From positions 1 through 25,567 of the IMG/VR virus record IMGVR_UViG_3300017910_000198: a DNA stretch of 25,567 nt, one strand, 5' to 3'. A program made the translations under genes and the position numbers. This DNA comes from a virus. Taxonomy: Duplodnaviria; Caudoviricetes. The notes below the pieces were generated by a model. That model worked only from the letters and a program-made list of their open reading frames with translations, made no database searches and was not told where the DNA came from. Position 1 is the first letter of the stretch. Each line of letters starts with the position of its first letter. Below are positions 9,617 to 24,976 of the stretch, piece after piece.

Positions 9617-9928
9617 CTACCATTTAACTTTATCAGCCCAGTATGCTGCAGACATTTTGCCTTTCGCAATATTTCTGCGGTGTCGGGCTTTAAAGCTTTT
9701 ACGTTTCTTTTTCATCTTAGCAGATTCACCTGCTTTAGGTTTACCTGCTGTCTTAGCTCCCTGCTCCCCGAAACGTATTGTCTTAACCTTATCGCCTTCC
9801 TTAGCTACAACGATGTGAGACTTCTTAGGGTGGTTTGGTGTGCGCTTAGGCTTATTGTAGCCTGATACACCTGCTCTTTTAAGCCTAGAGTCTCTAGCTT
9901 TACCACCTTTCTTATATTCTTCTCTCAT
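9617..9928 (-). CDS. Very basic small protein (DUF5754-like pattern)
   Basis: 103 aa, 34 K+R by hand count; KTIRFG..G...RKSFKARH...SAAYWADKVKW; N-terminal YKKGGKA; ATGA-coupled. Confidence 0.8.
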   Translation of the reverse strand: MREEYKKGGKARDSRLKRAGVSGYNKPKRTPNHPKKSHIVVAKEGDKVKTIRFGEQGAKTAGKPKAGESAKMKKKRKSFKARHRRNIAKGKMSAAYWADKVKW

Positions 9929-10167
9929 CGTTTTTTACCTTTGTGTAGACCATGTTTAGCGTGTTGCTTACCTTTCTTAGTAGCTTCCTTCTTTTTCTTG
10001 TTAGCTGCTGCTAGTTTCTTTCTGCCTGCAGCAGTTGACTTGAGTTTAGCTATAGTTCTAGATGGAGCATACACCTCTCCAGTCTCAGAAGACTTCTTAC
10101 CGCTAGGTGTTCTCCACTTTTGTTTTGTCCACTTCTTTAAGGACTTCTGAGATTTCTTGAGAGCCAT
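9925..10167 (-). CDS. Very basic small protein (resembles the C-terminal half of DUF5872-type proteins)
   Basis: 80 aa, 28 K+R; QKSLKKWTKQKWRT..G.....GEVYAP...KK.EATKKGKQ; TAATG-coupled. Confidence 0.78.
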   Translation of the reverse strand: MALKKSQKSLKKWTKQKWRTPSGKKSSETGEVYAPSRTIAKLKSTAAGRKKLAAANKKKKEATKKGKQHAKHGLHKGKKR

Positions 10168-10908: not shown

Positions 10909-11271
10909 TTAGTAACTCCACATTACGCCAGTTCCATTACTATCCAAACTGCGGTTATCGACATGGATAAATGTATTAGCGATTCCAATACCGCCAAATC
11001 CCATTTTAATAGCTTCTTGAACAATTTTATATTTCTGTTTTCCGTTGGTGACTTTAATATCTGATGCAATACCTTTGGCATGTGTTCCTGCTTTCTCCTT
11101 TCTCTTTTCAATTGAGTGGTTTGGACTTCTGTAACCACTGGTTATAATAAACGGAAACCCACAGGCTTCACGCAGCTCATCGAGTCTGTGTATAAAATCT
11201 ATACACATCTCATTTTCTCCTGTCTCTTGACAGTTGAAATCTTCTAGTTTAAAGTATTTAAATTGGCTCAC
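10909..11271 (-). CDS. Endolysin, peptidase M15A family
   Basis: YFKLEDFNC, ITSGYRS, H-x6-D (HAKGIASD), GIGIANTFIHVD; ATGA overlap with the giant gene stop. Confidence 0.92.
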   Translation of the reverse strand: MSQFKYFKLEDFNCQETGENEMCIDFIHRLDELREACGFPFIITSGYRSPNHSIEKRKEKAGTHAKGIASDIKVTNGKQKYKIVQEAIKMGFGGIGIANTFIHVDNRSLDSNGTGVMWSY

Positions 11272-14200
11272 ATTAGCACCCCACTTATGTTAAAGGTAAA
11301 TTGTTTTTCAGGGTCATTGCTGACATCTTGAGCAGCGTGTACTAATTCACCATACTTATCTTTTGCATCTTTAGTTCTGTCGCTCTTAGCGGAATCAAAG
11401 TCGTATTTGTCTGGCAAGACTTGATACTTGCCGTCACCCAAATCTTTAAAGTTAAATGCACCAACAGTTGTAAACATCTCAAACGATGGGTCAGTCAAAG
11501 AAGTCAACGCTAAGTCTACTAAATCTTGGTCTTCTCGTTGACCTCTGTAAAACTCTGCAGGTGGAGTACCATCTTTCATTAGAGGATAGTCTCTGTACTG
11601 AACACTTGTACTGCCTCGTGCCATTGCATTCTCTACAGCAGTTCTAAGAACATCTTGCTGTGCAGTTCCAAAGCCTTCAACACGCACATCAGGCACTTCC
11701 ATATCTAATCCTAGCTTGTTGCCTAGCATATAGCGAGTAAACTGTACCGCATTCTCAGGCATAATATTTACGCCTGCTCTAAGTTTACGCTTAGTTTCTC
11801 GTAGGATAGGTGGTATTGTTTCTTCTTTTAGAGTTACAATTTCTTCTTTAACAGTATCAACAATTTCACCTGTTTTCTGTGCTATGCTACCGCCTATGTT
11901 GCCTACAAATATCATTCCTTTCGTGCTTGCTTCTTTAGCAGTATCAACAAACTCGCTTGTTTTTTCGGCTACAGTATCAGCTATTTCACCTATCTGCTCT
12001 AAGCCTCCTGTGTCCCCTGTAGTTCCTGCGGTGTTTTGTGCCACCCTTCCCTCTGAACTAAAGTCTGCGCTTAGTACCCCATCAATAAAGTTTGTAAATC
12101 CTGACAGGTCGCTTTCTTCTTTACGCAAAGCACCTGACATATTCTCTGCAGTTCTACCTTGACCGCCAAAGCTAGGAAGTTTTAGGGCTGCTAATCGCTC
12201 TCTGAAACTCTTGCCTGACTTTTTAGGGGGTTCTTTTAACTCAATTTCTGGCTTTTTTGAGTTATCTTGAGTTGAAGATTTGCTACCAAGTATTCTGCGT
12301 AGGGCTGAAGTAGTCTTGCTGATTGTTTCTGATACTGTACTTTGTACATTTTTAGAAACATTTTCAGCAGTTTCTTTCACAGCTTCACCCAGTTCTTTGG
12401 TAGCTTCTACAGCACCATCAAACATTTCAGTTGTAGGTAACTCGATTGGCTCAGACTTAGCAACGATTTCAGCCTGTTGAGATATAGCAGATTGGATAGG
12501 CTTTTCAAAGCTTAGTGTATCACCTGCATAAATCAAATCAACATTCTTAATGTTGTTTATATCTGCTATTTCCTGTACAGTCATGCCTTGTTCTTCAGCA
12601 ATCTTAGTAAGCGTATCGCCCTGCTGAATAACATATCCACCCTCTGCAAACATCGGCATACCTTTCAGTATGTCTTCTCGCATTTTTTCAGTTAGTTTAA
12701 TAGTAGGTAGCTCGACAGTTCCATCACCTCTGTCGTACATTTCTTTGGTAATCTCAACGCCATACTTCTTAGCAAACTTTTTGTTTAAGTGTTTGATAAG
12801 TGTCTTGTCGTAGAAGTCAAAGAACTTCTGACCGCCTTCTTTAAATTTCATGTTGCGCTTGAGTACGTAGTCTCCATCACTGTCTGGTGTAGAAGCTAAT
12901 AAGTCTTTGGCATTTTTATCACCAATAATCTTAGGCAGCTTAGCTTCAAGCTCCTCCATAGTTTCAAAGTTCATTATGAAGTCACTAAATTCATCATCAG
13001 TTCTTCTGCCCTGCAATCCAAATCCTGATGGAGAACCATCTTTCATGTTTTGTCGGGAGAACAAAACTACTTCATTAACTGCACCCATCTTATTGTTGCG
13101 GATAGCCTGCATTTCACCAGTAACTATAGCAACTCGGTCATAGCCTTCTTCAGCAGCAACCATCATAGCTTTGCGTAGACCTTGCAAGCCCCAACGTCTT
13201 TCGTTCATGTACGGAAGGTCGGGTACACCCATTTGTCTTTCAATGGCTAAGTCCATTATCTCATCAGCCATGCCTTGTCGTTCTTGTTTTAGTTCTTCGA
13301 GTCGCATGAATCTTGCTCTAAACTCTTCAGCTCTTTCTTTACCTAAGCCTCTTTTAATATTTAGGTCTTTATTTTGGGCTTTAGTTAGGTCAGATATTTC
13401 TAACTCAAGCTCAGTGTGTCGAGCCATCAATTCGTTATACGTTTTGCTTTGAGCTGCGGTATATCTTTCCCCACCACGACTGATTGCTTGCGAGGCATCA
13501 GACTGTATTTCGTCTATCAGCAATACCTTTTCAGCCTTGTCTGCTTTTGCAGTAGGTGTAATGTCTGAAAGTCTAAGGTGCAACAGAGGATTCTTAACAC
13601 CTTTGAAGTGCTCGTGTTCGTAATCTACATCTGTCTTTCTAAACTTCTGAGGCAGTGTGAATACAAGCTCTCGATAGTTTTGAGTGTTTTGACCATCGAA
13701 AGAATAGTTTAAATGTACAGGGTTCGCATCAAAGTCAGACAAGCCTACTTTGTTTTGGAACTCGCTAAACCTTGTGGTGTACCAATCTTCAAATGCTTCT
13801 GCACCTTCGCCAGTTAAATCGTCAAACGCATCAACTTCGTAAGGGTAGTTTTCTTCTGCCCATTCCCAAAATGCTTTTTCGTCTGCATCCATCAAGTCCT
13901 CTGCATCGTCTAACAGCATATCGTCTGAAACATTATCGTAATCGTCTTTGTGTCTAACTCGACCTGTTTGAACTTCTAAGTCGAAATTTTGTTCGTCAAA
14001 ATGACGGAGAACTTCTTCTTTAGTTACAGGCTTGTTGTTTCCAAAGCGTTCAGTAATTCCAGTGTAGTCTAACTCTTCGTCACTTACACCTTTCTTTTTC
14101 ATATCGTTGATAATTGACTGACCTGCTCTAGGCTTAACACCTTGAATTTCCAGTGCTGCTTTGTGTGCAGGGCTGTAGAATCCAGAAGCCAGTTTAGGTG

Positions 14201-17200
14201 CAAAGGCTTTAGCTACAACGCCACCAATGTTGAATCCGCTTCTTCGGTCTGAAGAATCAAAAGCCTGTGAAGCTACTGACTTAAATTGCTCAGGCTCAAA
14301 CAAGATGTAGGAGTACGGAGACTCACCTTGATAGCTAGGCTCTGCAGTATTGCGGTACTTAACAGAATCAAACCCAAGCTCTTTCAAGAAGCTTTGGAAG
14401 TCTAGGTTCAACTCAGCACGTTTCATGTCTGTTTCAACTTTCTGCAACACATTGTCGTAAGACTTTTGGTTGATGAAAGGTTGCAACTCTACAGCTCTTT
14501 CGTAGAACTTGTCGAACTGTTTGTTTACTTTGGCAGTTATCTCAACTCCATTAGCCTTGATAGCATCTTTGACTTTCTGTGCAGAATCGTTAAAGTCTAG
14601 TAAGATAGACTCAACACGCCATGAACCCATATCGTCTTCAACTACCAGAGGCTTCTTGACGTTGATATACCCCTGTTCGACTGTATAAGGTCTGATTGAT
14701 GCACCATCTTTGCCTATTTGCTGAGAAACAAAATTAAAGAAGTTGTTGTAAGCGTTTGGCTTAGGCTTAGCATTGACACCCACAAACTGTCGCATAAGCT
14801 TCTCAGTCTTAGCAGGGTCATTGTTTGATAGCTCGTTTGCCATGTCACGAACCATAATCATGTCGATGTTTCCTTTGCTACCTACATGAGTACCAGTCTC
14901 ACGAGGAAACAGGAAAGAAACATTGAAGTCTGCATCTTGATAGCTAGACACAACACGATAAATTAAATCTTTGTTTTCTGAATCGGCTGTGAATTTTACC
15001 TGTGCATCTTTTCGCTGTTCTGGCGACAATACGTTACGTTGTGTTCTAGGCGAATCCATCTTTGGAGCTTTGAATTTCTCAAAGTTGATTTCATTTTTGC
15101 TTGCCAGTTTCAGCATAGCATCCCTAGCAACTTCAAACGCACCTTTATCGCTGAGCATAGGGAAAGAAGTTTTAAGCTCTTTGTTTAAGATGTTGTGCAG
15201 ATAATCCAAAGACTTTTCATCAAACTTAACTTTCTTCGCTGCTTCTTTTTCTGCAGCAGTCAAGTCGATAGACAGCTTCTTGTTCATAGCCTTGATGGTC
15301 ATAATCTCAGGATTCATAACCATTGCAGCAATCTGAGGATTCTGAGCATTTGTATCTAAGTCAATAATAGTCTCGATAGCTTTGATGTGGTCAGAAGAAA
15401 AACCTGCTTCTTCCTGAATCTCAAACATCAGTCTTTCTCTTTTGACTGCATTAGGCTCGTCATAAATTCTGCGTTCTTCTGCAAGCTTACTAGCCTTAGC
15501 ACTTTTCTCTGGAGAAGATTCCATCAGATTAATTAGGTTAGCTTCTTTCAACTCTTCAAGGTCAAAGTCGTTAAACTTGATTTCGCCTGTTGCGTTAGCT
15601 GCACTAATGTCTGAATCAATTTTCTGTGCAGCTTCATCAATCAGTTTAGAATCAATCTTGCCATCTGTCATCTGCAACAGCTTTTCGCTAATGATGTTTC
15701 CGTAAGTAAACCCATCTTCAGGCTTGGGAGTCTTCTTGCCCATCAGTGCATCAATAGCTTTTGTAGCTAATACTACACCACCTTTGTTGTACTTGTCAAT
15801 AGGCTGAGCCTTTTCAAACTCAGGAATGAAACCACCAAACACATCGTTCTGTGCTTTCTTCAAGTTTCTGCGGTAGTTCTTAACGTAGTCTTCGCCTAAG
15901 ATTTGCTTACCAAAATATGTACCAGAAACAAGCGGTATCTTATATCCTACAGTCGGGATAATCCCTTGTTGAATTAAGCTTAGACCATCCGATGCTGCAG
16001 GGCCAAATGGAAGCGTAGCATACGCTAAGTTGCTTTTGCTATACTTAGCTGCTGTTTGAGCACGTTTAAGGCTGTCGAGTAATAACCCATTACCACCCCA
16101 ACGAGCGATAGCTTCTTTAGTAATTTCCCACTCAGTCTTGCCTCTTTCGTTTTCACCGCCTGTACGTACATAGTTAGTCCAACGAGCCATGCCTGTCATA
16201 ATAGCGCCTGCAGCTAGTATCTTAGGTGCGTTACGCTTAGGAGCTTTGATAAGAGACTTAGTAGCTCCTTTGAGGATAGTATTGGTAAACGCAGCAGGGT
16301 AGCTTAGCAGTTGAAACAATACCGCAGTCTTAGGGTTAGAAAATAGCAGTGGCTTAACGCCTGAGAGCGCAGTAGGCTGTAGGATTACGCCATTGGTGTA
16401 ACGTGCAGCACCACCCAAGAAGTCTGACTTGTAAAAGTCATCATCTAGCTTAGCGCCTGCATTGTGCCAATCAACGGCTTTCTGCCAATCAATGCCTAGT
16501 TCTGCAAGCTCTCCTGCAAGAACTTCGCCATCACCATCTAGCACTCGGTTTGGATAGCGAGTAGCTAGTTTCTTAATGTTGTCATCAATTAGGTTTTTAC
16601 CGCTTGAAAACGAAACATTCTGAACAAACTTTGTCCACTGGTCAAGCAGTGTGATTCGGAAGAACTTATTACTTGCAGTTTGCAAGCCTTCAGAAACTAA
16701 CTCGTCACCTGCAAGTCTGTCACCAACCTGAGCAAGTGCTTGGTCTACATGAATGCTAAAGTTACGCATTTCAGCCAAAGCTTCGTTTGCTGTAAGTCCG
16801 TTTTCATCCATAAGCTTCTTTTGCATTCCGCTTGTGATTTTTTTGTGTGACATGGATAAAGCTTCACCAAAACCTTTTACGGAGTTGACCACGCCTGCTT
16901 TGCTTATGTTGATAAATACTTCTGTCAAACTTGAAAGAGTTGCCAAACCTAGAAGTGCGACACGATTGGCAAAGCTATATGTATCTACAGCGGTTTGTGC
17001 GCCTCGACCATAGCGGTCTACGCCCTCGCCTGTAGCAGTACGATACAGGTTTTCAATCTGCCTACGCATCTTAGGGGTCATTGTTTCGCCCTTGTCTGCT
17101 AATTCTTTTTCAATTCGGTTGATGTAAAACTTGTTGAACTCGTCTGCATTGCGTACACCTAGTACACGATGCTTCGCTATAGACTTTCCGTACTGGTAAG

Positions 17201-19019
17201 TGTATGCGTGTAAAGCTCCAAGAACATCAGAGTTTAGAAACTCTTCAAAGTCTGAATCATTTCCGATAGTATTAATTTTACGTTTAGCTGAAAAGAAATA
17301 ACCAGAAGAAGTACCGCTGTCTACTTGGTTCTTAACGTCTAGCATATTTGCTACAGTGCGCTTAGCTTCTGCTTTGCTCATACCTGCTTTAGTTACAAAC
17401 AAGTCTACAAGCTTATTAGGATTCTTTTCAACAGCACTACGACTCCACATACGAGGAATGTAGTTTTCTACTAGCTTATCAATAACGCCAATATCATTTA
17501 GGGCATCACCCATTTCAGCGTATAAGGCTTTGATTTCAGTTGCGGAGATAGTGATAGCTTCATTTACTTCTTTACTAAACTGGTCATGGTAAATAGGCTT
17601 TTCACTTCTCATGCTTTTAGACAGAGCATCGTTTATGTCTGTAGCAAGCTTAGTGTCAATCTCACTCAGAGAAAGATGATTTACAATGCTACGGAATCTT
17701 TCATTTATCTTGCCAGTAACTTCACGCTGAACTTCTGAAACGTCTTTTTCTACAACGTCTTTCTGAACTTTGTAATCAACGCCAAACTCGTGGCTAAGCT
17801 TTTGTTGAAGCTGTCGGGCTGTGCCAGAGAACTTAACGATAGGCGATAGAACGCCTGCAGCTTTACCAAAGAAGTTGCCTGACAGGTTAGCTGATAGTTG
17901 GAATAAACCTTGTTTAATTCTATTGGTTTGACCCTCAACAGTTTCTTCGGCATCAGCAGCAGCTCGAATGATTGCTCTGATTTCTTTCTGTGTTTTTTCA
18001 CCACCGCCTAAGTCTTCAGCAAACTTGTTAATAACATCGTCTAGCTGTTCATCTATGTCATTAACGCCTTTTACAGTGGTTGTCTCACCAGTAAGTCTAG
18101 CAGCTTCATCGACCAAAGTCCCACCAGAAGCAGGAATAAACTCGCCCTCTAGTGCTTCGTCAAAAGCTTCACTAGCTTCGGAAACAGACAGCTCTTTAGA
18201 ACTGGCATTGCCGTTCTTAAAGTATTTGTTAGCAATTGCTGAGCCTGCTTTGTATAGACCAAAACCTGCAGCACCGCCTATAACAGTGCCTAACGCAGTT
18301 TCGCCTACACTATACTCGTCACGTATATCAGCAGCTAAATCAAGCTCCTGCATTGCGTGTGTGCCTGCTGTGCCGTATGTAGAACCAATCAGCGTAGAAG
18401 CCGTCAAAGGATTTTTAGCAGCAGCAGCGGAAGTAGCCCTAACTGCGTTCATAAGGGTTCTACCTGCAGCATATTGAGCTGACTTACGAGCAGCAATACT
18501 AGCTGCGGAAGAAGCACCTAAGTTTGTAGTACCTGATAAGATACCGCCTAAAGTTAATAGGTTTTCAGGGTTGAACACAACGTCAGCACCGATGTCTCCA
18601 ACGGCTTGCATTGTTTCACCAAAGCCACTAACTTCTGCATTGCCCCAACGAGCTTTCATAACTCGGAATGCTTGTTTAACGTGCTCTGGAGCATCTTCTA
18701 GTGCGTTAGCTAAAGCAAGCGGAGCACCTAGACGATACTCTAAGTCACGCATATATTCGGTGGGGTCATCAGTTTGACCTGTTGCAGCTTGGTCAACTAA
18801 ATAGCTTCCTACTCCCTGTACTTCGGCTAAATAGTCTGTAAGAGTTTCAAAACTAGATAAAACAATTTCATCATTTTCAAAGTCTTTGATTGTGTAGTTG
18901 TCGGGAGTTCTTAGATTTACTTTACTTTCTCTAATTACTCTTTCTTCACCAATGCCTGCTGTGTAACGCTCAGGGCCAGTTAGCTCAGGATACAATGTAT
19001 CTGTAGTATTGTCTTCCAT
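11268..19019 (-). CDS. Giant (2583 aa) multidomain internal virion/ejection protein (polyvalent-type)
   Basis: N-terminal ~1075 aa resembles podovirus large internal virion proteins (G/A-rich hydrophobic segments, ENYIPRMW, FQLLSYP); then ART-PolyVal-like, EIQSD and LysM modules; last of the ejection-type genes. Confidence 0.8.
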   Translation of the reverse strand: MEDNTTDTLYPELTGPERYTAGIGEERVIRESKVNLRTPDNYTIKDFENDEIVLSSFETLTDYLAEVQGVGSYLVDQAATGQTDDPTEYMRDLEYRLGAPLALANALEDAPEHVKQAFRVMKARWGNAEVSGFGETMQAVGDIGADVVFNPENLLTLGGILSGTTNLGASSAASIAARKSAQYAAGRTLMNAVRATSAAAAKNPLTASTLIGSTYGTAGTHAMQELDLAADIRDEYSVGETALGTVIGGAAGFGLYKAGSAIANKYFKNGNASSKELSVSEASEAFDEALEGEFIPASGGTLVDEAARLTGETTTVKGVNDIDEQLDDVINKFAEDLGGGEKTQKEIRAIIRAAADAEETVEGQTNRIKQGLFQLSANLSGNFFGKAAGVLSPIVKFSGTARQLQQKLSHEFGVDYKVQKDVVEKDVSEVQREVTGKINERFRSIVNHLSLSEIDTKLATDINDALSKSMRSEKPIYHDQFSKEVNEAITISATEIKALYAEMGDALNDIGVIDKLVENYIPRMWSRSAVEKNPNKLVDLFVTKAGMSKAEAKRTVANMLDVKNQVDSGTSSGYFFSAKRKINTIGNDSDFEEFLNSDVLGALHAYTYQYGKSIAKHRVLGVRNADEFNKFYINRIEKELADKGETMTPKMRRQIENLYRTATGEGVDRYGRGAQTAVDTYSFANRVALLGLATLSSLTEVFINISKAGVVNSVKGFGEALSMSHKKITSGMQKKLMDENGLTANEALAEMRNFSIHVDQALAQVGDRLAGDELVSEGLQTASNKFFRITLLDQWTKFVQNVSFSSGKNLIDDNIKKLATRYPNRVLDGDGEVLAGELAELGIDWQKAVDWHNAGAKLDDDFYKSDFLGGAARYTNGVILQPTALSGVKPLLFSNPKTAVLFQLLSYPAAFTNTILKGATKSLIKAPKRNAPKILAAGAIMTGMARWTNYVRTGGENERGKTEWEITKEAIARWGGNGLLLDSLKRAQTAAKYSKSNLAYATLPFGPAASDGLSLIQQGIIPTVGYKIPLVSGTYFGKQILGEDYVKNYRRNLKKAQNDVFGGFIPEFEKAQPIDKYNKGGVVLATKAIDALMGKKTPKPEDGFTYGNIISEKLLQMTDGKIDSKLIDEAAQKIDSDISAANATGEIKFNDFDLEELKEANLINLMESSPEKSAKASKLAEERRIYDEPNAVKRERLMFEIQEEAGFSSDHIKAIETIIDLDTNAQNPQIAAMVMNPEIMTIKAMNKKLSIDLTAAEKEAAKKVKFDEKSLDYLHNILNKELKTSFPMLSDKGAFEVARDAMLKLASKNEINFEKFKAPKMDSPRTQRNVLSPEQRKDAQVKFTADSENKDLIYRVVSSYQDADFNVSFLFPRETGTHVGSKGNIDMIMVRDMANELSNNDPAKTEKLMRQFVGVNAKPKPNAYNNFFNFVSQQIGKDGASIRPYTVEQGYINVKKPLVVEDDMGSWRVESILLDFNDSAQKVKDAIKANGVEITAKVNKQFDKFYERAVELQPFINQKSYDNVLQKVETDMKRAELNLDFQSFLKELGFDSVKYRNTAEPSYQGESPYSYILFEPEQFKSVASQAFDSSDRRSGFNIGGVVAKAFAPKLASGFYSPAHKAALEIQGVKPRAGQSIINDMKKKGVSDEELDYTGITERFGNNKPVTKEEVLRHFDEQNFDLEVQTGRVRHKDDYDNVSDDMLLDDAEDLMDADEKAFWEWAEENYPYEVDAFDDLTGEGAEAFEDWYTTRFSEFQNKVGLSDFDANPVHLNYSFDGQNTQNYRELVFTLPQKFRKTDVDYEHEHFKGVKNPLLHLRLSDITPTAKADKAEKVLLIDEIQSDASQAISRGGERYTAAQSKTYNELMARHTELELEISDLTKAQNKDLNIKRGLGKERAEEFRARFMRLEELKQERQGMADEIMDLAIERQMGVPDLPYMNERRWGLQGLRKAMMVAAEEGYDRVAIVTGEMQAIRNNKMGAVNEVVLFSRQNMKDGSPSGFGLQGRRTDDEFSDFIMNFETMEELEAKLPKIIGDKNAKDLLASTPDSDGDYVLKRNMKFKEGGQKFFDFYDKTLIKHLNKKFAKKYGVEITKEMYDRGDGTVELPTIKLTEKMREDILKGMPMFAEGGYVIQQGDTLTKIAEEQGMTVQEIADINNIKNVDLIYAGDTLSFEKPIQSAISQQAEIVAKSEPIELPTTEMFDGAVEATKELGEAVKETAENVSKNVQSTVSETISKTTSALRRILGSKSSTQDNSKKPEIELKEPPKKSGKSFRERLAALKLPSFGGQGRTAENMSGALRKEESDLSGFTNFIDGVLSADFSSEGRVAQNTAGTTGDTGGLEQIGEIADTVAEKTSEFVDTAKEASTKGMIFVGNIGGSIAQKTGEIVDTVKEEIVTLKEETIPPILRETKRKLRAGVNIMPENAVQFTRYMLGNKLGLDMEVPDVRVEGFGTAQQDVLRTAVENAMARGSTSVQYRDYPLMKDGTPPAEFYRGQREDQDLVDLALTSLTDPSFEMFTTVGAFNFKDLGDGKYQVLPDKYDFDSAKSDRTKDAKDKYGELVHAAQDVSNDPEKQFTFNISGVLM
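12507..12635 (-). other. LysM peptidoglycan-binding domain within the giant protein
   Basis: YVIQQGDTLTKIAEEQGMTVQEIADINNIKNVDLIYAGDTLSF matches the LysM consensus. Confidence 0.93.
14241..14980 (-). other. ADP-ribosyltransferase-like (ART-PolyVal-type) domain within the giant protein
   Basis: LIYR...GTHVGS...GYINVKKPL...D.GSW...GFDSVKYRN..E...SYILFEPEQFKS....FD. Confidence 0.65.
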
Positions 19020-19041: not shown

Positions 19042-20967
19042 TTAGGCTTCTGGATAGTAAGTGGTCATGTACTCTTTTAAGAAAGCTTCATATTCATCTC
19101 GTGCTTCCTTAGTTATTTTTGCATAGACTTCTTTACCCTGATTTGTTGCAAAATATTTAGACTCGTATTTTTCTTGTTTTTCTACCATTTTATCTGCTTT
19201 CTCAGCTAATCTTTCAAGCTTCATAAAAGCACTTGCATGGTCGCCAGTAGACCTTCCTCTTTTACCTGTTAGTTTTTCAGGTCGAGGGACAGTAGCTAAA
19301 CTTTCTACAGCACTCAAGTCTTCAGTTACAACTTCTCCAGTTTCATTAGTTTCAGTTTCAGTTGATTTTTTTACAGCCTCACCGCCTTCTCGATATTTAA
19401 ACCCTTTAATAAATTCGGCTAAGCTTTGTCCTTTTTTGGGGCTTTTACCAGAGTCGATTGCTGCTAAAACTCTACTCATGTCTGCAATAGCAAGTTGTCT
19501 ACCTAGTGTTTGAGATACAGGCGTTCCGTTTGATGTAGTACCTTGAAAGTAATCCATACCTAAAAATTTATCCATAAACCCCTGTCTTTCAGAAACATCC
19601 ATCAATGATAAGCTATGATATAGTTCTTCTTTATCATCTAGAAGATAGGCGATAACATTTTGTCTTTCTTTAATTACGCCTTGAGCTTGCATTTCATCTG
19701 CAATAAACATAGTTTCAATAATGTTTCCTGCTACTGAGGGTAGAGTAACATTCTTGCGTTCTTTGTTGTCTTCTAAGTAGTCATCTATTAGTTTCAATTG
19801 AATTTTTGCACCTGATTCATAGTCAGGAACAATTCCGTTATTATATAGAATCGTAGCAGCAGCAGTAACACTTGCTGCAATTTCCTTCTCAAACTTCAAA
19901 GAATCCTGTGCAGCTACAACATCATCATCGTGTCGGTTGTTTGTGATTTCTTTAATGCTTTCACGAATATTAGAATAATAAGGACTTTGGTTGTATTGAG
20001 TAGCACCAAACTCAGCCTTATCTTCATTCAATATTCTAGCAGATAAAATCTTATGTTTTTGTGATAGATTAACATCGGTTTGAGTTTTAGCTTTAGTTCC
20101 GTTAAGGGCATCGTGAGATATATAATGTATAGTATTTCCAGTTTGAGCTTTCAACATTTGTGTTTCGGTTTTGTCACCAAACATATTTGTTTCTGTAACT
20201 TTATAACCTTCACCGATTATTTTTGTTTGAGGCTTACCTAAATCAACACGCTCTTTGTTTTGCTCAGCTAAGTACGTTGATAGACTGGCGTTTCGGGTAA
20301 TTGCATAAGCATCTTGATAGCCCTTGATAGTTTTAGCATCATCAACATACAGAGTAACTTCTCCGATAGCCTTGTCCATTTGACCTAAGCCTGATTCACC
20401 TAAGTTGTCTACGCCAATAATTCTACGAATATCACCTATGAAAGAAGCTTCTTTTTTAACTCTTTGGTCAATGTAGCTATTGTAATTCTCCATGTTGCCT
20501 GTGCTATTGTAGCTTTTATGTGCTGCTTCCCTGTCCTCAAAAGCTTTTTTATACTCAGGCAGATAACCCTTAATCATTTTAGCTTTTAGAGTTTGAAAGT
20601 TGCTTTCGTTATAAGTTCCTTGTGCTCCATACATATTTCTAAGCTGAGCATCCATAAGCTTATCTACTTGGTTGTAGTAGTAAGTGTCTCGCCCTACTTT
20701 ATCTGCTTCTAAAATCTCCGTAGCAAATGCTTTATGTTTATCATTCACATTTTGCATCAGAAGTTTATTAGCTACAACATCTTCATTTTGCATTAGCCTG
20801 TTTTGTTTTTCTGCATAAATATCTGTAAAAACGCTTTTACCGATATTCACAGCCATGTTAGTCCACTCTTTTTTACGAGCATCTTTTTCGGCTTGCTTTC
20901 TCAGTTTATCGTTTCTATCACGAATATCTGATAAAAGGCTTTCACCATACGCTATTGAGTCTACCAT
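19042..20967 (-). CDS. Putative internal virion (ejection) protein, 641 aa
   Basis: Position between ejection-type genes; helical, charged sequence; no recognisable catalytic motif. Confidence 0.6.
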   Translation of the reverse strand: MVDSIAYGESLLSDIRDRNDKLRKQAEKDARKKEWTNMAVNIGKSVFTDIYAEKQNRLMQNEDVVANKLLMQNVNDKHKAFATEILEADKVGRDTYYYNQVDKLMDAQLRNMYGAQGTYNESNFQTLKAKMIKGYLPEYKKAFEDREAAHKSYNSTGNMENYNSYIDQRVKKEASFIGDIRRIIGVDNLGESGLGQMDKAIGEVTLYVDDAKTIKGYQDAYAITRNASLSTYLAEQNKERVDLGKPQTKIIGEGYKVTETNMFGDKTETQMLKAQTGNTIHYISHDALNGTKAKTQTDVNLSQKHKILSARILNEDKAEFGATQYNQSPYYSNIRESIKEITNNRHDDDVVAAQDSLKFEKEIAASVTAAATILYNNGIVPDYESGAKIQLKLIDDYLEDNKERKNVTLPSVAGNIIETMFIADEMQAQGVIKERQNVIAYLLDDKEELYHSLSLMDVSERQGFMDKFLGMDYFQGTTSNGTPVSQTLGRQLAIADMSRVLAAIDSGKSPKKGQSLAEFIKGFKYREGGEAVKKSTETETNETGEVVTEDLSAVESLATVPRPEKLTGKRGRSTGDHASAFMKLERLAEKADKMVEKQEKYESKYFATNQGKEVYAKITKEARDEYEAFLKEYMTTYYPEA

Positions 20968-20972
20968 GTTTT

Positions 20973-21551
20973 CTATCCTGTAGGTTGTGCCATAAGGCTA
21001 GGGTTTTCTGGAGTAGGCGCTTCTTCTTCTTGAGGCTTTTCTAGCAAGCTGATTTCGGGAAGTTCCTGCATTTTTTCTTTCATGTCTGGAGTAATCACAC
21101 CAGTAGTTTCACCAGTTTGGGCAACAGTACGCATCTTATTCATCATGTCTTCTTGCATATTAGCACCGAAAACGTCACCCTCTTCTTCTTCGTTGTCTAT
21201 CTTAATATCTAAATCTAATCGTTCAGCAAGTGCAATTAGCATATAAGCTAAAGGCTCTGCAAGCATTAGCATCAAATCAGGATTCCACATTCCATCTTGG
21301 AAGTGTTCAAACAAAATAACTTCTACGATTGTCATAACTGGAACGCCTTTACTAATGCCCATCATCAAGGCTTCGTATCGTTGTTCATCTTCAGTTAAGT
21401 AATCCCACAAATATAAAGAAGCCTCGTGAACATTTACAAACTGAGGAGGCTGCTCATAGGGGGCAGGGTTATCAGGATTGTTTGTTAAAGACATACCTGC
21501 GATAGGTCTATCCATTTTTGAAACTTCTTGCAAGTAATCTTCTTCATTCAT
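20973..21551 (-). CDS. Acidic virion-module protein, 192 aa
   Basis: PIAGMSLT..P....PYEQPPQF and WNPDLMLML patterns; TAATG-coupled to the upstream gene. Confidence 0.7.
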   Translation of the reverse strand: MNEEDYLQEVSKMDRPIAGMSLTNNPDNPAPYEQPPQFVNVHEASLYLWDYLTEDEQRYEALMMGISKGVPVMTIVEVILFEHFQDGMWNPDLMLMLAEPLAYMLIALAERLDLDIKIDNEEEEGDVFGANMQEDMMNKMRTVAQTGETTGVITPDMKEKMQELPEISLLEKPQEEEAPTPENPSLMAQPTG

Positions 21552-22732
21552 TATACTGTACCTCCAATGCCTCTAGACATTGTTTGCAAATAAAAGTTTG
21601 CCCCTGCTCCAAAAGGTGCTTGGTCGTAATAGCCACCACCAGACAATTGTACTTGCATAGCTCTATCGTTAATGTCGGGAGAAGCATAAGACCCTGCAGG
21701 CATCATATCGAACGATGGAACATAGGCGTTATATTGAATAGGTGCTACAGGCTTTTCTTCTAATCCTGCAGCTTGCATAGCTTTAGTTTCAAGAGCATCA
21801 GTAGTTCTGTCACCTAAGTTTTCTGCTAATGTTGTTGGAGCTTCTTGTACTTCTTTCACAACACCTTCAACAAATTTCTTAGGAGCTTCTTTAATACCAG
21901 TTACAAGTTTATCCACTAAAGTTGGTTCTGGTGTAGTTCCTAATTGCGTAGCAGTTTTACTTGCGCCTGCTGCTAAATCTTTATCAAATGCTGTTTGATT
22001 AAATCCTGAAGCATCAATCTTTTGTGGGTCAATTTTAAGAGCATCGTCAAATGCTTTCTGATTAAATCCTGAAGCATCCATTTTTGGGTCAGCCAATAAG
22101 CTTTTATCGCTAGTCACTTCAGGAACTTTTTTAAGGTCTGCTTTAACATCTGCTTTGACATCTGTCTTAATGTCCATTTTTTCTCCACCTGCCTGAACAT
22201 CACCTGTAGGTGTAACGGAGCTAGTGCCTGCAATGTTAGTTTCAAATGCTGCCATAACCTCGCCTGCTCTAGTTGATACAGCTTCCTGTGTAGCTTTCCA
22301 AGCCTGTCCAAAAGTTTTACTTTCAATGCCAGTTTTAATTCCTACCTTTTCTAACGCAGCACCAGTAAACTCTCTTACAAAAGTTGAAACGCCATCTGTA
22401 ACAGTTCGGAATGCGGAGTGTCCTGCTTTAGCAAACTTAGCACCTGCTTCAAGAATTTTACCTGCACCTTTCACAAGGACATTGCTACTAGCTGTCATCT
22501 TACCAATTCCTGTGCCGATAGCTTTACCTACAGCACCACCGATTTGGCCTAACACCTTTCCCATCACAGCCCCGATAGGTGTGAACATAAGAGCTAGTTG
22601 ACCTACAATGCCAATCTTGCCCATGAACTTGCCTATCTTTTTAAAAGCTGACTTGATTCCTTTGCCGATGCTTTTGAAAGCAGTCTTAATGCCCTTCTTA
22701 ATTTTTTTAAATACTTTACTAAAAAATCCCAT
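21551..22732 (-). CDS. Putative membrane-penetrating ejection/pilot protein, 393 aa
   Basis: Cationic amphipathic N-terminus followed by a G-rich hydrophobic segment. Confidence 0.6.
   Translation of the reverse strand: MGFFSKVFKKIKKGIKTAFKSIGKGIKSAFKKIGKFMGKIGIVGQLALMFTPIGAVMGKVLGQIGGAVGKAIGTGIGKMTASSNVLVKGAGKILEAGAKFAKAGHSAFRTVTDGVSTFVREFTGAALEKVGIKTGIESKTFGQAWKATQEAVSTRAGEVMAAFETNIAGTSSVTPTGDVQAGGEKMDIKTDVKADVKADLKKVPEVTSDKSLLADPKMDASGFNQKAFDDALKIDPQKIDASGFNQTAFDKDLAAGASKTATQLGTTPEPTLVDKLVTGIKEAPKKFVEGVVKEVQEAPTTLAENLGDRTTDALETKAMQAAGLEEKPVAPIQYNAYVPSFDMMPAGSYASPDINDRAMQVQLSGGGYYDQAPFGAGANFYLQTMSRGIGGTV
21984..22078. repeat. Tandem duplication, 32-nt core with 63-nt period (DASGFNQxAFD twice)
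   Basis: 21984-22015 and 22047-22078 match at 30 of 32 positions. Confidence 0.9.
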
Positions 22733-22744
22733 TTTGAATACCCT

Positions 22745-24976
22745 TTAAGTTGCTCTGTCTAATGCAGCAGATAGTGTGCTTATAAATGTTGTTGTGTCGT
22801 TTTTGTTTTTAAACACCGCTTCGTTACCAATTGCTGTAGCAAGCATCTGAGCCATACGTTGTCTTTCACTTTCGTAGTTTAAACGTACATAAGCAGCTTC
22901 GTCACGCAATTGTTGCCAGAGTTGTGTTTGTTGTTGACTTGTTAGGTTGTACGCAATTTGAGCGTTCTGTTGGTTAGCTGAGTTTTGAGCAGCAGTATTA
23001 GCTAGGTTAGCTTGTCTACGCCACTGAACATTAGACTGTTCAACAGCCTGTGCATTTGCAGCATTCCACTGGTCACGCTGAAAGTCTTGTTGCTCATTAA
23101 ACTTCTCAACATCTACAGCGAGTTGAGCTTGGAACTGAGCAGCTTGTAACTCATTGCCTGCTTCTATAGCAGCTTGTCTGTTCTTTGCTGTAGCGTTGAA
23201 CTGGTCACGAGCAGAATTAGCTGAAGCATTGTACTGGTCTATTTGAGCAGACAGTGATGCCATAAACTGTTCAGTTTGCTGTTCATTCATAGCAGAGAAC
23301 TGTCGAGCAGCGTTATCGGCAGCTTGGTTAGTCAACAGTGCTTGCTGTCGTTGCTGAGCCGTAAGAATATTAGACTGCTGTTCATTGCTTAAATTAGTCA
23401 TATCCATTTGCAAGAACGCTTGAGCATTTTGAACTGCAAGCTTAGTATTCTTGTCTAAGTTTGCTACATCTAGGTTAGCCATTGCAGTAGCGTTTTGCAT
23501 TGCAGCTTGTTGGTCAGCACTAAACTGAGTTGCTGTCATGCTCTGCATAAACTTACTATTAGCTAAAGCAACTTGCTGTTCTGCATTGAATGTAGTCAAG
23601 TCAAAGTTAGCACTGGTCATTGCATTTTGTATTGCTGCTTTCTGGTCTACAGTAAGTTGAGCCTGATTCATGTCAGCAGCTATCTTGCCTTCAAGCAAGT
23701 TAGTTTGCATTCTAGCATTTAAGTTAGCCAACTCTGTTTGCTGTGCATTGCTAAGATTTTCAGAAGCAGCTTGATTTCTAGCAGTAAGATTAGCCAGTCG
23801 CATCTGTTGGTCGTTGCTAAGATTAGCCAAGTCCATCTGCTGTTTGAAAGCTGCGTTCTTAGATAAGAAGTCGGCTGCAATTTGCTTATCTTGTGCAGTA
23901 GCACTTTGGATAGCTTGAGCATTACTTTGTGCAATTGGTAATGCACTTTGAATGATTGCATTAAACAGAGAGTCTCTGCCCACAGTAGAAGCACTCATAC
24001 CACGCCTAGCTAAGTTAGCTTCAACTTTAGCGAGAGCAGGTCTAGCCCATGTAGGTACTTCACCATCTTCCATGCCTGCCATCAGCGATTCCATCTGAGC
24101 ACTTACAAGAGCTTCTTCGGGCAGTCCAGAAAGAGTAGTCTTAATATCTTCTGGCAGATTTTCCATTTCTTCTGCAACCAACTCTGGATTATCTGCAAGA
24201 CGTTGTGCAATCTCAGCATCTTTAAGACCTTGAGATTTTAGATTCTGTATTACTTTATTTTTACTGATTGTACGCTTTTGAAGTTGGTCAGCTTCGTACA
24301 TACTCATAATCTGAGCAGCTTCGCCATCTGGAGCAGGTTCGCCTGTAATGGCTTCACGCTCTTTAACTTCTGCTTCTTTAGTAGCCTGTACCTCAGTTTT
24401 CTTGCCAGTTATCTGACCTACAAAAGATTCTTCGCTAGGCTTTAGTTCTGCTGTTTCTGCCATAGCTTCTTGTTCAGCCTGAGTATCTCGTTGGGCTGCA
24501 ACAGCTTCTTGAGTCAGTGTAGCATCTTGTTGCTCAGCCAAAGCCTCTTGAGAGACTTCACCTTGAGCAGCTTCAACATCTTGAGCCTGTACTTGCGTAG
24601 CATCGTATTGTGCTGCTGTAGTTTGCTCAGGAGCAGCTACTTGCCCTGCTTCTCCTTGCAAAGCAGTTGCACCCATGTCAGGAGCTTCAACAGTTTGTTG
24701 AGACACTTGTCCTGCAGGGTCAAGAGTTTGTGTGTCTGAAGCTAATGTAATAGTACCTGTACGTGGGTCTGTACTGGTTCTCTGTGCATACATTCTAGGT
24801 ACAACTAAATCTGGAGCATCTTGCTCAATACTTATTGGTGCTCCTGCAGCATTAGTAGTAATAGTTGACTTAGGAGTCTCTTCAGTTTTAACTTTAGCTG
24901 ATTTTGGAGTACCATAAGTTTGTTTTTGTACTGTAGCTCCTACACGCCTGCCCTGTTTGAGTGGTGGTCTTGCCAT
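22745..24976 (-). CDS. Q/N/A-rich long coiled-coil virion protein, 743 aa (candidate DNA ejection tube)
   Basis: Low-complexity A/E/Q/T N-terminal region, central VPTWARPA...RRGMSASTVG segment, then an 11-residue repeat region. Confidence 0.7.
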   Translation of the reverse strand: MARPPLKQGRRVGATVQKQTYGTPKSAKVKTEETPKSTITTNAAGAPISIEQDAPDLVVPRMYAQRTSTDPRTGTITLASDTQTLDPAGQVSQQTVEAPDMGATALQGEAGQVAAPEQTTAAQYDATQVQAQDVEAAQGEVSQEALAEQQDATLTQEAVAAQRDTQAEQEAMAETAELKPSEESFVGQITGKKTEVQATKEAEVKEREAITGEPAPDGEAAQIMSMYEADQLQKRTISKNKVIQNLKSQGLKDAEIAQRLADNPELVAEEMENLPEDIKTTLSGLPEEALVSAQMESLMAGMEDGEVPTWARPALAKVEANLARRGMSASTVGRDSLFNAIIQSALPIAQSNAQAIQSATAQDKQIAADFLSKNAAFKQQMDLANLSNDQQMRLANLTARNQAASENLSNAQQTELANLNARMQTNLLEGKIAADMNQAQLTVDQKAAIQNAMTSANFDLTTFNAEQQVALANSKFMQSMTATQFSADQQAAMQNATAMANLDVANLDKNTKLAVQNAQAFLQMDMTNLSNEQQSNILTAQQRQQALLTNQAADNAARQFSAMNEQQTEQFMASLSAQIDQYNASANSARDQFNATAKNRQAAIEAGNELQAAQFQAQLAVDVEKFNEQQDFQRDQWNAANAQAVEQSNVQWRRQANLANTAAQNSANQQNAQIAYNLTSQQQTQLWQQLRDEAAYVRLNYESERQRMAQMLATAIGNEAVFKNKNDTTTFISTLSAALDRAT
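22952..23842 (-). repeat. 27 consecutive 11-residue (hendecad) protein repeats
   Basis: Unbroken register from QQMDLANLSND to NSANQQNAQIA; Asn at position 7 in 18 of 27 units. Confidence 0.85.

Follow-up and report, generated by a model that had tools for sequence, protein, structure and literature searches.

What does a short glycine-rich motif do when it recurs at the joints of a giant phage protein? The question is raised by IMG/VR record IMGVR_UViG_3300017910_000198 (Caudoviricetes), whose 25,567 nucleotides, here called the window, form a 25.6-kb phage fragment with replication genes on the + strand and late genes on the − strand. The last and largest gene of a presumed ejection-protein block on the − strand encodes a modular protein of 2583 amino acids (aa), in which motifs of the form [FY]xxGGxV fall between modules. 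Comparison with relatives shows that the motif marks joints between exchangeable modules and that its xxGG part is a property of this phage clade, not of the module that bears it. With our confidence evenly divided for and against, we propose that R-x-x-[FY]-x-x-G-[GS] at these joints is a maturation cut site, cleaved after the aromatic residue; as a consensus we work with R-x-x-[FY]-x-x-G-[GS]-x-[VI].

The protein is laid out as follows, a bar marking the predicted cut.

11268..19019, − strand: modular 2583-aa protein (called open reading frame)
15792..19019, − strand: core block, aa 1-1076, likely the ejection-protein core (phrog_6958 match)
15771..15791, − strand: junction motif 1, YNKGGVV, aa 1077, predicted cut Y|N
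14232..15788, − strand: ART-PolyVal-like block, aa 1078-1596 (PF18760 at aa 1447-1586, E 0.07, below cut-off)
14214..14234, − strand: junction motif 2, FNIGGVV, aa 1596, predicted cut F|N
12648..14231, − strand: EIQSD module, aa 1597-2124, unannotated and also present in other polyvalent phage proteins
12825..12845, − strand: FKEGG, aa 2059, within the EIQSD block, where an insertion ends
12630..12650, − strand: junction motif 3, FAEGGYV, aa 2124, predicted cut F|A
12510..12635, − strand: LysM domain, aa 2129-2170 (PF01476, E 3e-12)
11883..11903, − strand: degenerate motif GNIGGSI, aa 2373, preceding the C-terminal module
11271..11762, − strand: C-terminal mobile module, aa ~2420-2583, unannotated, of no named family

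The late, virion-gene context of this protein holds by PHROG match and by gene order in relatives. It matches phrog_7348 along its full length, aa 684-917 of the core block match phrog_6958 (virion structural protein) at E 1e-15, and 20 related loci carry the core; a PDB sequence search with the core block returned nothing credible. ART-PolyVal (PF18760) reaches E 5e-6 in the relative L027, likewise below the cut-off. The EIQSD module, a label retained from an earlier sequence-only reading of the window, has 106 homologues, many of them in proteins with LPD or ART-PolyVal Pfam domains, and returned no Pfam or NCBIfam match, no credible PDB match, no named family in the ESM Atlas, and no match among annotated phages.

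The sequence-only reading had named the three junction motifs as dividing the protein into its modules, and all three lie in frame within the 2583-aa open reading frame; if the cut follows the aromatic residue, the blocks are 1077, 519, 528, and 459 aa long. Motif 2 does stand past the ART-like domain, 10 aa beyond the weak ART-PolyVal match, and motif 3 does stand at the start of LysM, overlapping its first two residues. That inventory had overlooked a fourth [FY]xxGG at aa 2059, FKEGG, which is possibly an extra site or a structural turn, and the degenerate GNIGGSI at aa 2373, a position at which only 1 of 57 homologues could be aligned, reading GNVGSSI.

The strict pattern [FY]xxGGxV occurs three times against 0.063 expected, a count reached in 1 of 20,000 shuffles, a chance figure that is post hoc because the pattern was picked after the sites had been seen; the looser [FY]xxGG occurs four times in the protein against 1.07 expected (P 0.024). 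Since the strict pattern was chosen after the fact, the position of the motif was tested in relatives, and its position in homologues rules out a chance origin. The motif is also enriched in ejection genes. Across five partial genomes, near-duplicate halves excluded, the ejection genes carry 20 copies of [FY]xxGG in 16,853 aa (6.9 expected), the early genes 6 in 16,661 aa (5.3 expected), and the other late genes 7 in 17,829 aa (11.4 expected).

The 20 core loci encode proteins of 1139 to 2577 aa whose content downstream of the core varies. The EIQSD module precedes LysM in the window's protein and in L001, follows it in L008, L010, L014, and L018, and is absent from L003, L005, L007, L011, and L013, where a pesticin-like lysozyme or other modules are found instead. 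The C-terminal module is matched in 7 of 57 in-clade proteins, at other positions in some of them, and in the L013/L015-L017 lineage the gene stops 45 aa past motif 1 and the ART block is a new, separate gene. Several effector-type domains per polypeptide are shuffled in this way among relatives, and the ends of alignments between relatives coincide with motifs. Relatives therefore swap, reorder, drop, and split modules at the motif, as the sequence-only reading had supposed, and the motif marks joints between exchangeable modules.

Two smaller modules recur among these proteins. In L003, L006, L008, L010, and L013, two motifs just past the core enclose a mini-module of ~45 aa, GGEVxVPNAPxEPDERIxKxTGxPYN, which is absent from the window's protein. 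A DUF6973-like module with a motif on both sides lies between ART and LysM in L006 (aa 1671-1796) and L008 (aa 1596-1720).

Conservation was measured in 57 further in-clade proteins, with module boundaries set by profiles that excluded the motif; because these homologues share kinship, the junction counts show conservation and not independent events. FxxGG stands at the EIQSD end in 57/57 in-clade proteins and in 0/21 of the out-of-clade EIQSD proteins with a readable end (49 such proteins in all). Every one of those 21 ends carries F or Y, usually followed by S, Q, or A, with one MYKGG. The motif stands at the core end in 48/48 proteins that reach it (random 34-aa windows, 10%), with GG in 45/48, and a loose form stands at the EIQSD N-junction in 56/57 (random, 6.6%). 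GG itself is present at 13/57 of these N-junctions (15 when two copies in shifted register are included), the remainder reading GS, GA, GK, GQ, GR, or AG. Overall, [FY]xxGG totals 201 in-clade against 52 expected and 56 outside the clade against 47. Since F or Y closes the EIQSD module inside and outside the clade alike and xxGG follows only in-clade, the xxGG tag was added in this clade and is specific to it, not to the module. A relic intrinsic to the module is accordingly rejected for xxGG and accepted for the aromatic residue. Among 37 junctions, which had been selected for GG, all 37 15-mers differ and all four Gly codons are used; selection thus acts on the peptide, and such free codon use rules out a DNA-level signal. 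In the 7 relatives inspected, the first ejection protein also opens with a short basic leader that ends in the motif.

Outside the clade, proteins P0321-P0359 carry [RKLM]-[FY]-[SQR] at both EIQSD ends (RYS, RFS, LFQ), which possibly represents the joint code of another lineage.

At which bond would the motif be cut? Published cases offer a register. T5 pb2 is cut after R1127, as mapped by mass spectrometry (PMC10038345); in the T5 genome record AEGG begins at pb2 residue 1128, which gives R|AEGG, and R-A-x-G-G is invariant in 7/7 T5-like sequences. In crAss001 gp45, the portal-bound part resolved by cryo-electron microscopy comprises residues 425-552 (PMC10172136), and residue 425 is the A of N-AFGG. 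Because the T5 cut and the gp45 boundary both fall one residue into the motif, before x-x-G-G, we predict cuts at Y|NKGG, F|NIGG, and F|AEGG. R|AEGG of T5 is the only mapped cut that we found at a like motif. Lambda gpH loses ~14 kDa near its C-terminus, with site and enzyme stated as unknown (PMC12617516), and has FATGG at 733 and YATGG at 778 on either side of a GEFV core. The JBD30 site is only predicted, at 1066, away from FASGG at 1019 (PMC11445458), and TM4 gp17 is probably processed, its cut not mapped (PMC1796659).

A glycine-rich stretch of lambda gpH at aa ~700-725 (L116) contains a degenerate S-AIGG-AV upstream of FATGG, where a cut would fit the reported 14 kDa better.

What might read or cut the motif? 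In relatives whose records reach the head module, a gene lies between an SU10-type portal gene and a scaffold-like gene, with the portal upstream in 50/50 and the scaffold downstream in 79/79 loci with enough flank. The position between portal and scaffold is the usual one for a protease. The protein encoded by this head gene is a string of small modules separated by the motif (272 motif-like sites in 69 proteins against 43.5 expected), and it has a core of ~60 aa, F-x-x-x-G-x-V-x-G-x-G-T-G-x-S-D-S-I-P-A-R-L-S-D-G-E-F-V, that is nearly invariant (~30 residues in 65 sequences). Its family comprises 6,129 proteins at E ≤ 0.001, unannotated, and in the cultured pelagiphage HTVC103P the head gene is gp79, with FNVGG at 1231 of gp52 and KNIGG at 10 of gp59. 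Head gene and ejection core co-occur in G001, G004, G005, G008, G011, G012, and G013 and in the contigs of L006 and L008; the head gene was not found in four of five fragmentary records (G002, G006, G007, G009), G002 being without the portal region.

The sequence-only reading had proposed looking for a protease elsewhere in the genome. A candidate gene does exist in relatives; no known head protease was found by Pfam (E 0.001) in 123 open reading frames of two complete relatives, whose sole peptidase matches are S74 tail-fibre chaperones and an M15 endolysin. These 123 were drawn from 138 called frames, the omitted 15 being short or on the opposite strand, and the giant protein of G012 was entered as two stretches. 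The head-gene core belongs to no Pfam or NCBIfam family, no S77/S78-type or herpes-type serine protease was matched in Pfam or NCBIfam, and the PHROG matches of the head gene are all of tape-measure type. The invariant D, S, and E of the core are only candidates for catalytic residues. Two leads were discarded: crAss_CARG1 for the head-gene core (ESM Atlas, 0.83), which failed in HHalign and whose PF25725 was found in 0/5 records, and a spurious cyanophage match, H171.

Three further observations concern the surroundings of the head gene. In G013 a free-standing ART-PolyVal-like gene (L220:14381-14977, −) lies between portal and head gene. The head-gene proteins of L044, L058, and L067 open with a similar-looking N-terminus ending in KQVGG, which suggests a fusion, so that head gene and ejection protein may share one module pool. 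In Roseobacter phage CRP-212, gp38 (L216:12184-15795; 1203 aa) contains the core in a divergent form that lacks the opening motif, and its gene lies between the portal and a scaffold-sized gene, before the coat gene.

The same core appears in tape-measure proteins. Matches at E ≤ 0.01 fall in 303 phage records, and most of the 50 listed are tape measures; in the PDB the core matches 8zdo (E 2e-9) and 8rk3 (E 4e-4), and it matches lambda gpH at E 0.17 PDB-wide and at 7e-6 within the lambda genome. These comparisons indicate that the head-gene core is homologous to the C-terminal cassette of tape measures of the lambda/JBD30/Douge type, for which we use the label GG cassette. The tape-measure cassette starts with x-A-x-G-G, and another copy of the motif usually follows; read by eye, the cassette recurs in long tape measures between apparent enzyme modules. 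At the first Gly position of the opening motif, Gly stands in 55/55 tape-measure cassettes and is missing from 53/53 head-gene copies; the absence of this opening Gly would suit a copy that acts as enzyme or reader and is not cut. The T5 cassette is a sister family (A-x-G-G...V-G-E-x-G-P-E; HHalign 97.8%) with ~13,000 stretches in IMG/VR. The complete records of PhCF1.2 and Slicky01, phages with distant stand-alone core homologues of 957 and 1222 aa, have the cassette in 0/2 and lack the motif where the homologue ends, which agrees with co-occurrence of tag and cassette in two cases only.

If the motif is a maturation cut site, the 2583-aa precursor (~286 kDa), likely ejected, would be loaded into the prohead as one chain via its core and then cut to pieces of ~117, 59, 61, and 50 kDa; channel core, ART-like enzyme, EIQSD module, and LysM cell-wall module would act separately once ejected. 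The cutter or reader could be the ~60-aa core of the portal-scaffold gene, a nomination that we make tentatively, at clearly less than an even chance. In tape measures this core sits in cis between two motif copies, and in HTVC103P-like podophages its action would be in trans, on substrates retaining only the tag. The broader proposal, that the GG cassette is a protease module cutting X|x-x-G-G, in cis in tape measures and as a stand-alone head protease in HTVC103P-like podophages, strikes us as possible though doubtful. Were it true, the long-missing enzyme and site would be named for lambda gpH and T5 pb2, and any module bearing the tag could be joined to the ejected protein and set free within the virion. 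A tag working as predicted would amount to a compact rule for loading protein cargo into a phage head and releasing it from there. The question bears on the cut site and enzyme of lambda gpH, on gp45 as one chain across the portal, and on the delivery of enzyme modules by marine podophages. We found no description of the motif or the cassette in the literature searched, in which coverage of subscription journals was thin.

A number of points weigh against cleavage at the motif and against the head-gene core as the cutter. The head gene lies outside the window and is known in relatives only. AlphaFold models of the head-gene domain and the cassette from tape measures reached predicted template modelling scores of 0.27 and 0.34 with the core poorly folded, so that catalytic geometry is not claimed. 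The T5-type and head-gene families align over the 12-column start alone (probability 4.7%), and the T5-type family has R or K before the A in 108/119 where the junctions here have F or Y before xxGG in 31/37; on account of the differing residue and the start-only alignment, we treat the T5 link as a shared motif and not as shown homology. The start of the gp45 piece at residue 425 may be no more than a modelling boundary at the onset of density, the authors of that structure treat gp45 as uncut ('cleav' occurs 0 times in the accessible text of PMC10172136), and HHalign gives no alignment of the gp45 domain with the head-gene core (probability 0.17). The lambda fragment past FATGG is 12.2 kDa, counted after GG, against the ~14 kDa reported. 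Some joints have no clear motif (L002 before EIQSD, the LysM-linker joints, 1/57 N-junctions), and the window's 743-aa gene has no N-terminal copy. In 3/57 proteins 5-6 aa separate the motif from the stop, so that cleavage would release nothing, and an FxxGG internal to the EIQSD module is kept in 34/56 aligned homologues. No virion proteomics or gel for this clade was found in the literature searched.

The alternative that survives best is an uncut docking or packaging tag. The motif would then be a short strand that attaches to the portal or to the head-gene core and so tethers and orders every module and leader inside the prohead, and the chain would be ejected whole. The copies close to the stop, found also in L008/L010/L014/L018, fit such a tag, as do the many motif copies per head-gene protein and the want of a recognisable protease fold for the core in the AlphaFold models. 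The gp45 piece beginning AFGG is portal-bound (PMC10172136), and the N4 virion RNA polymerase is packaged unprocessed with its peptidase region still needed for encapsidation (PMC5512222). However, the one mapped like motif, T5 R|AEGG, is a cut (PMC10038345), and packaging would need no more than a single tag in each chain, yet a tag is present at most joints. We rate docking as rather unlikely.

Less probable again, and in our judgment clearly improbable, is a passive joint, a flexible hinge or module cap that comes along with the modules by inheritance, is reused as in-frame microhomology for recombination, and is read by nothing. Module exchange does map to the motif, the aromatic residue belongs to the module end outside the clade also, and the FxxGG within EIQSD is conserved. 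Against this stand the clade-specific xxGG (57/57 versus 0/21), the free variation of codons, and the presence of the motif on N-terminal leaders and across the head-gene protein, where a hinge explains little.

The sequence-only reading had leaned on adenovirus protease (adenain) and African swine fever virus (ASFV) polyproteins as precedents, and cleavage by a cysteine protease of that kind, at Gly-Gly or after it, now looks very improbable. In substrates of adenain and ASFV pS273R, Gly-Gly is obligate at the cut. GG is indeed kept at the EIQSD end (57/57) and at most core ends (45/48); the analogy is weak because the second Gly is often replaced at the EIQSD N-junction, where GG is not obligate (13-15/57, in this one junction class). 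The T5 cut moreover precedes AEGG, and no cysteine protease of the adenain and pS273R clan was found by Pfam (E 0.001) in the 123 open reading frames of the two complete relatives. We give only the slightest chance to a host protease cutting in the producer cell or, after ejection, in the periplasm, with the head gene merely another substrate, for although motifs also separate the modules strung together in the head-gene protein and a 1973 title, cited in PMC10038345, reportedly speaks of selective host involvement in T5 tail-protein cleavage, the core is invariant (~30 residues, 65 sequences), the gene position is constant, and phages whose hosts are unrelated use the motif.

Cleavage at the motif would resemble T4-type processing of packaged proteins and tape-measure cleavage, and would fall outside the adenain-type and canonical prohead-protease systems. 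T4 gp21 is a prohead protease that processes internal proteins, and HK97 gp4 is of the same canonical type. Prohead-protease systems (T4 gp21; SPN3US gp245, PMC10052503) are alike in having a portal-scaffold gene and short leaders on packaged proteins; they differ in that the S77/S78-type family was not found here, the motif is another one, and the phage type here is short-tailed. T5 pb2, processed to pb2* and pb2C (Linares et al. 2023, PMC10038345), is also an ejected virion protein, and R1127|A-E-G-G shares four residues with F-A-E-G-G, although pb2 belongs to a siphophage tail, has a single site with a basic P1 residue, and carries the cassette in cis. Lambda gpH, processed to gpH* and gpHC (PMC12617516), is cut near a region with FATGG and YATGG around a GEFV core that scores against the cassette profile; it differs in that its cleavage is a tail-assembly event and in having no appended enzyme modules. 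The crAss001 cargo protein C1/gp45 (Bayfield et al. 2023, PMC10172136) is likewise ejected and has several x-A-x-G-G sites, at one of which the resolved domain begins, whereas gp45 is described as uncut and the head-gene core is unmatched in gp44-gp47, gp49, and gp50. Polyvalent proteins (Iyer et al. 2017, PMC5512222) are also late and multidomain and have been proposed to be cut into units; their modules include lysozymes and ART-PolyVal, the latter matched here below the cut-off, and the EIQSD module is common to LPD-bearing proteins among them. They differ in that their MPTase family is unmatched in the 2583-aa protein and in the 123 open reading frames; out-of-clade members end modules F-S/Q/A, and 'glycine' occurs 0 times in the accessible text of that paper.

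The neighbouring genes of the window include two with copies of the motif.

19042..24976, − strand: upstream presumed ejection genes of 743, 393, 192, and 641 aa (function from position)
19375..19395, − strand: YREGGEA, aa 525 of the upstream 641-aa gene
9896..9916, − strand: YKKGGKA, aa 5 of a 103-aa basic protein

The order of the upstream ejection genes is the same in relatives. The PHROG label of phrog_7348 (2564 positions), 'endolysin', is probably misleading; the likely endolysin of the window is the 120-aa Peptidase_M15 gene at 10909-11271. The late operon ends (9617-10167, −) with two small proteins, both very basic, that are candidate DNA-condensing core proteins; relatives have similar genes. 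The 393-aa gene (21551-22732, −) opens with a basic amphipathic stretch, MGFFSKVFKKIKK; like stretches come after several motifs and open the split-off gene of L013 (MAFSSLISKAIT), and they are possibly membrane- or DNA-binding leaders. Short basic tails follow the last motif at the C-termini of L002 and L006 (GKVLNTLKRARN, GGKVRNALRKLRGV), and crAss001 gp45 ends alike (AKGGKVRTKKKK).

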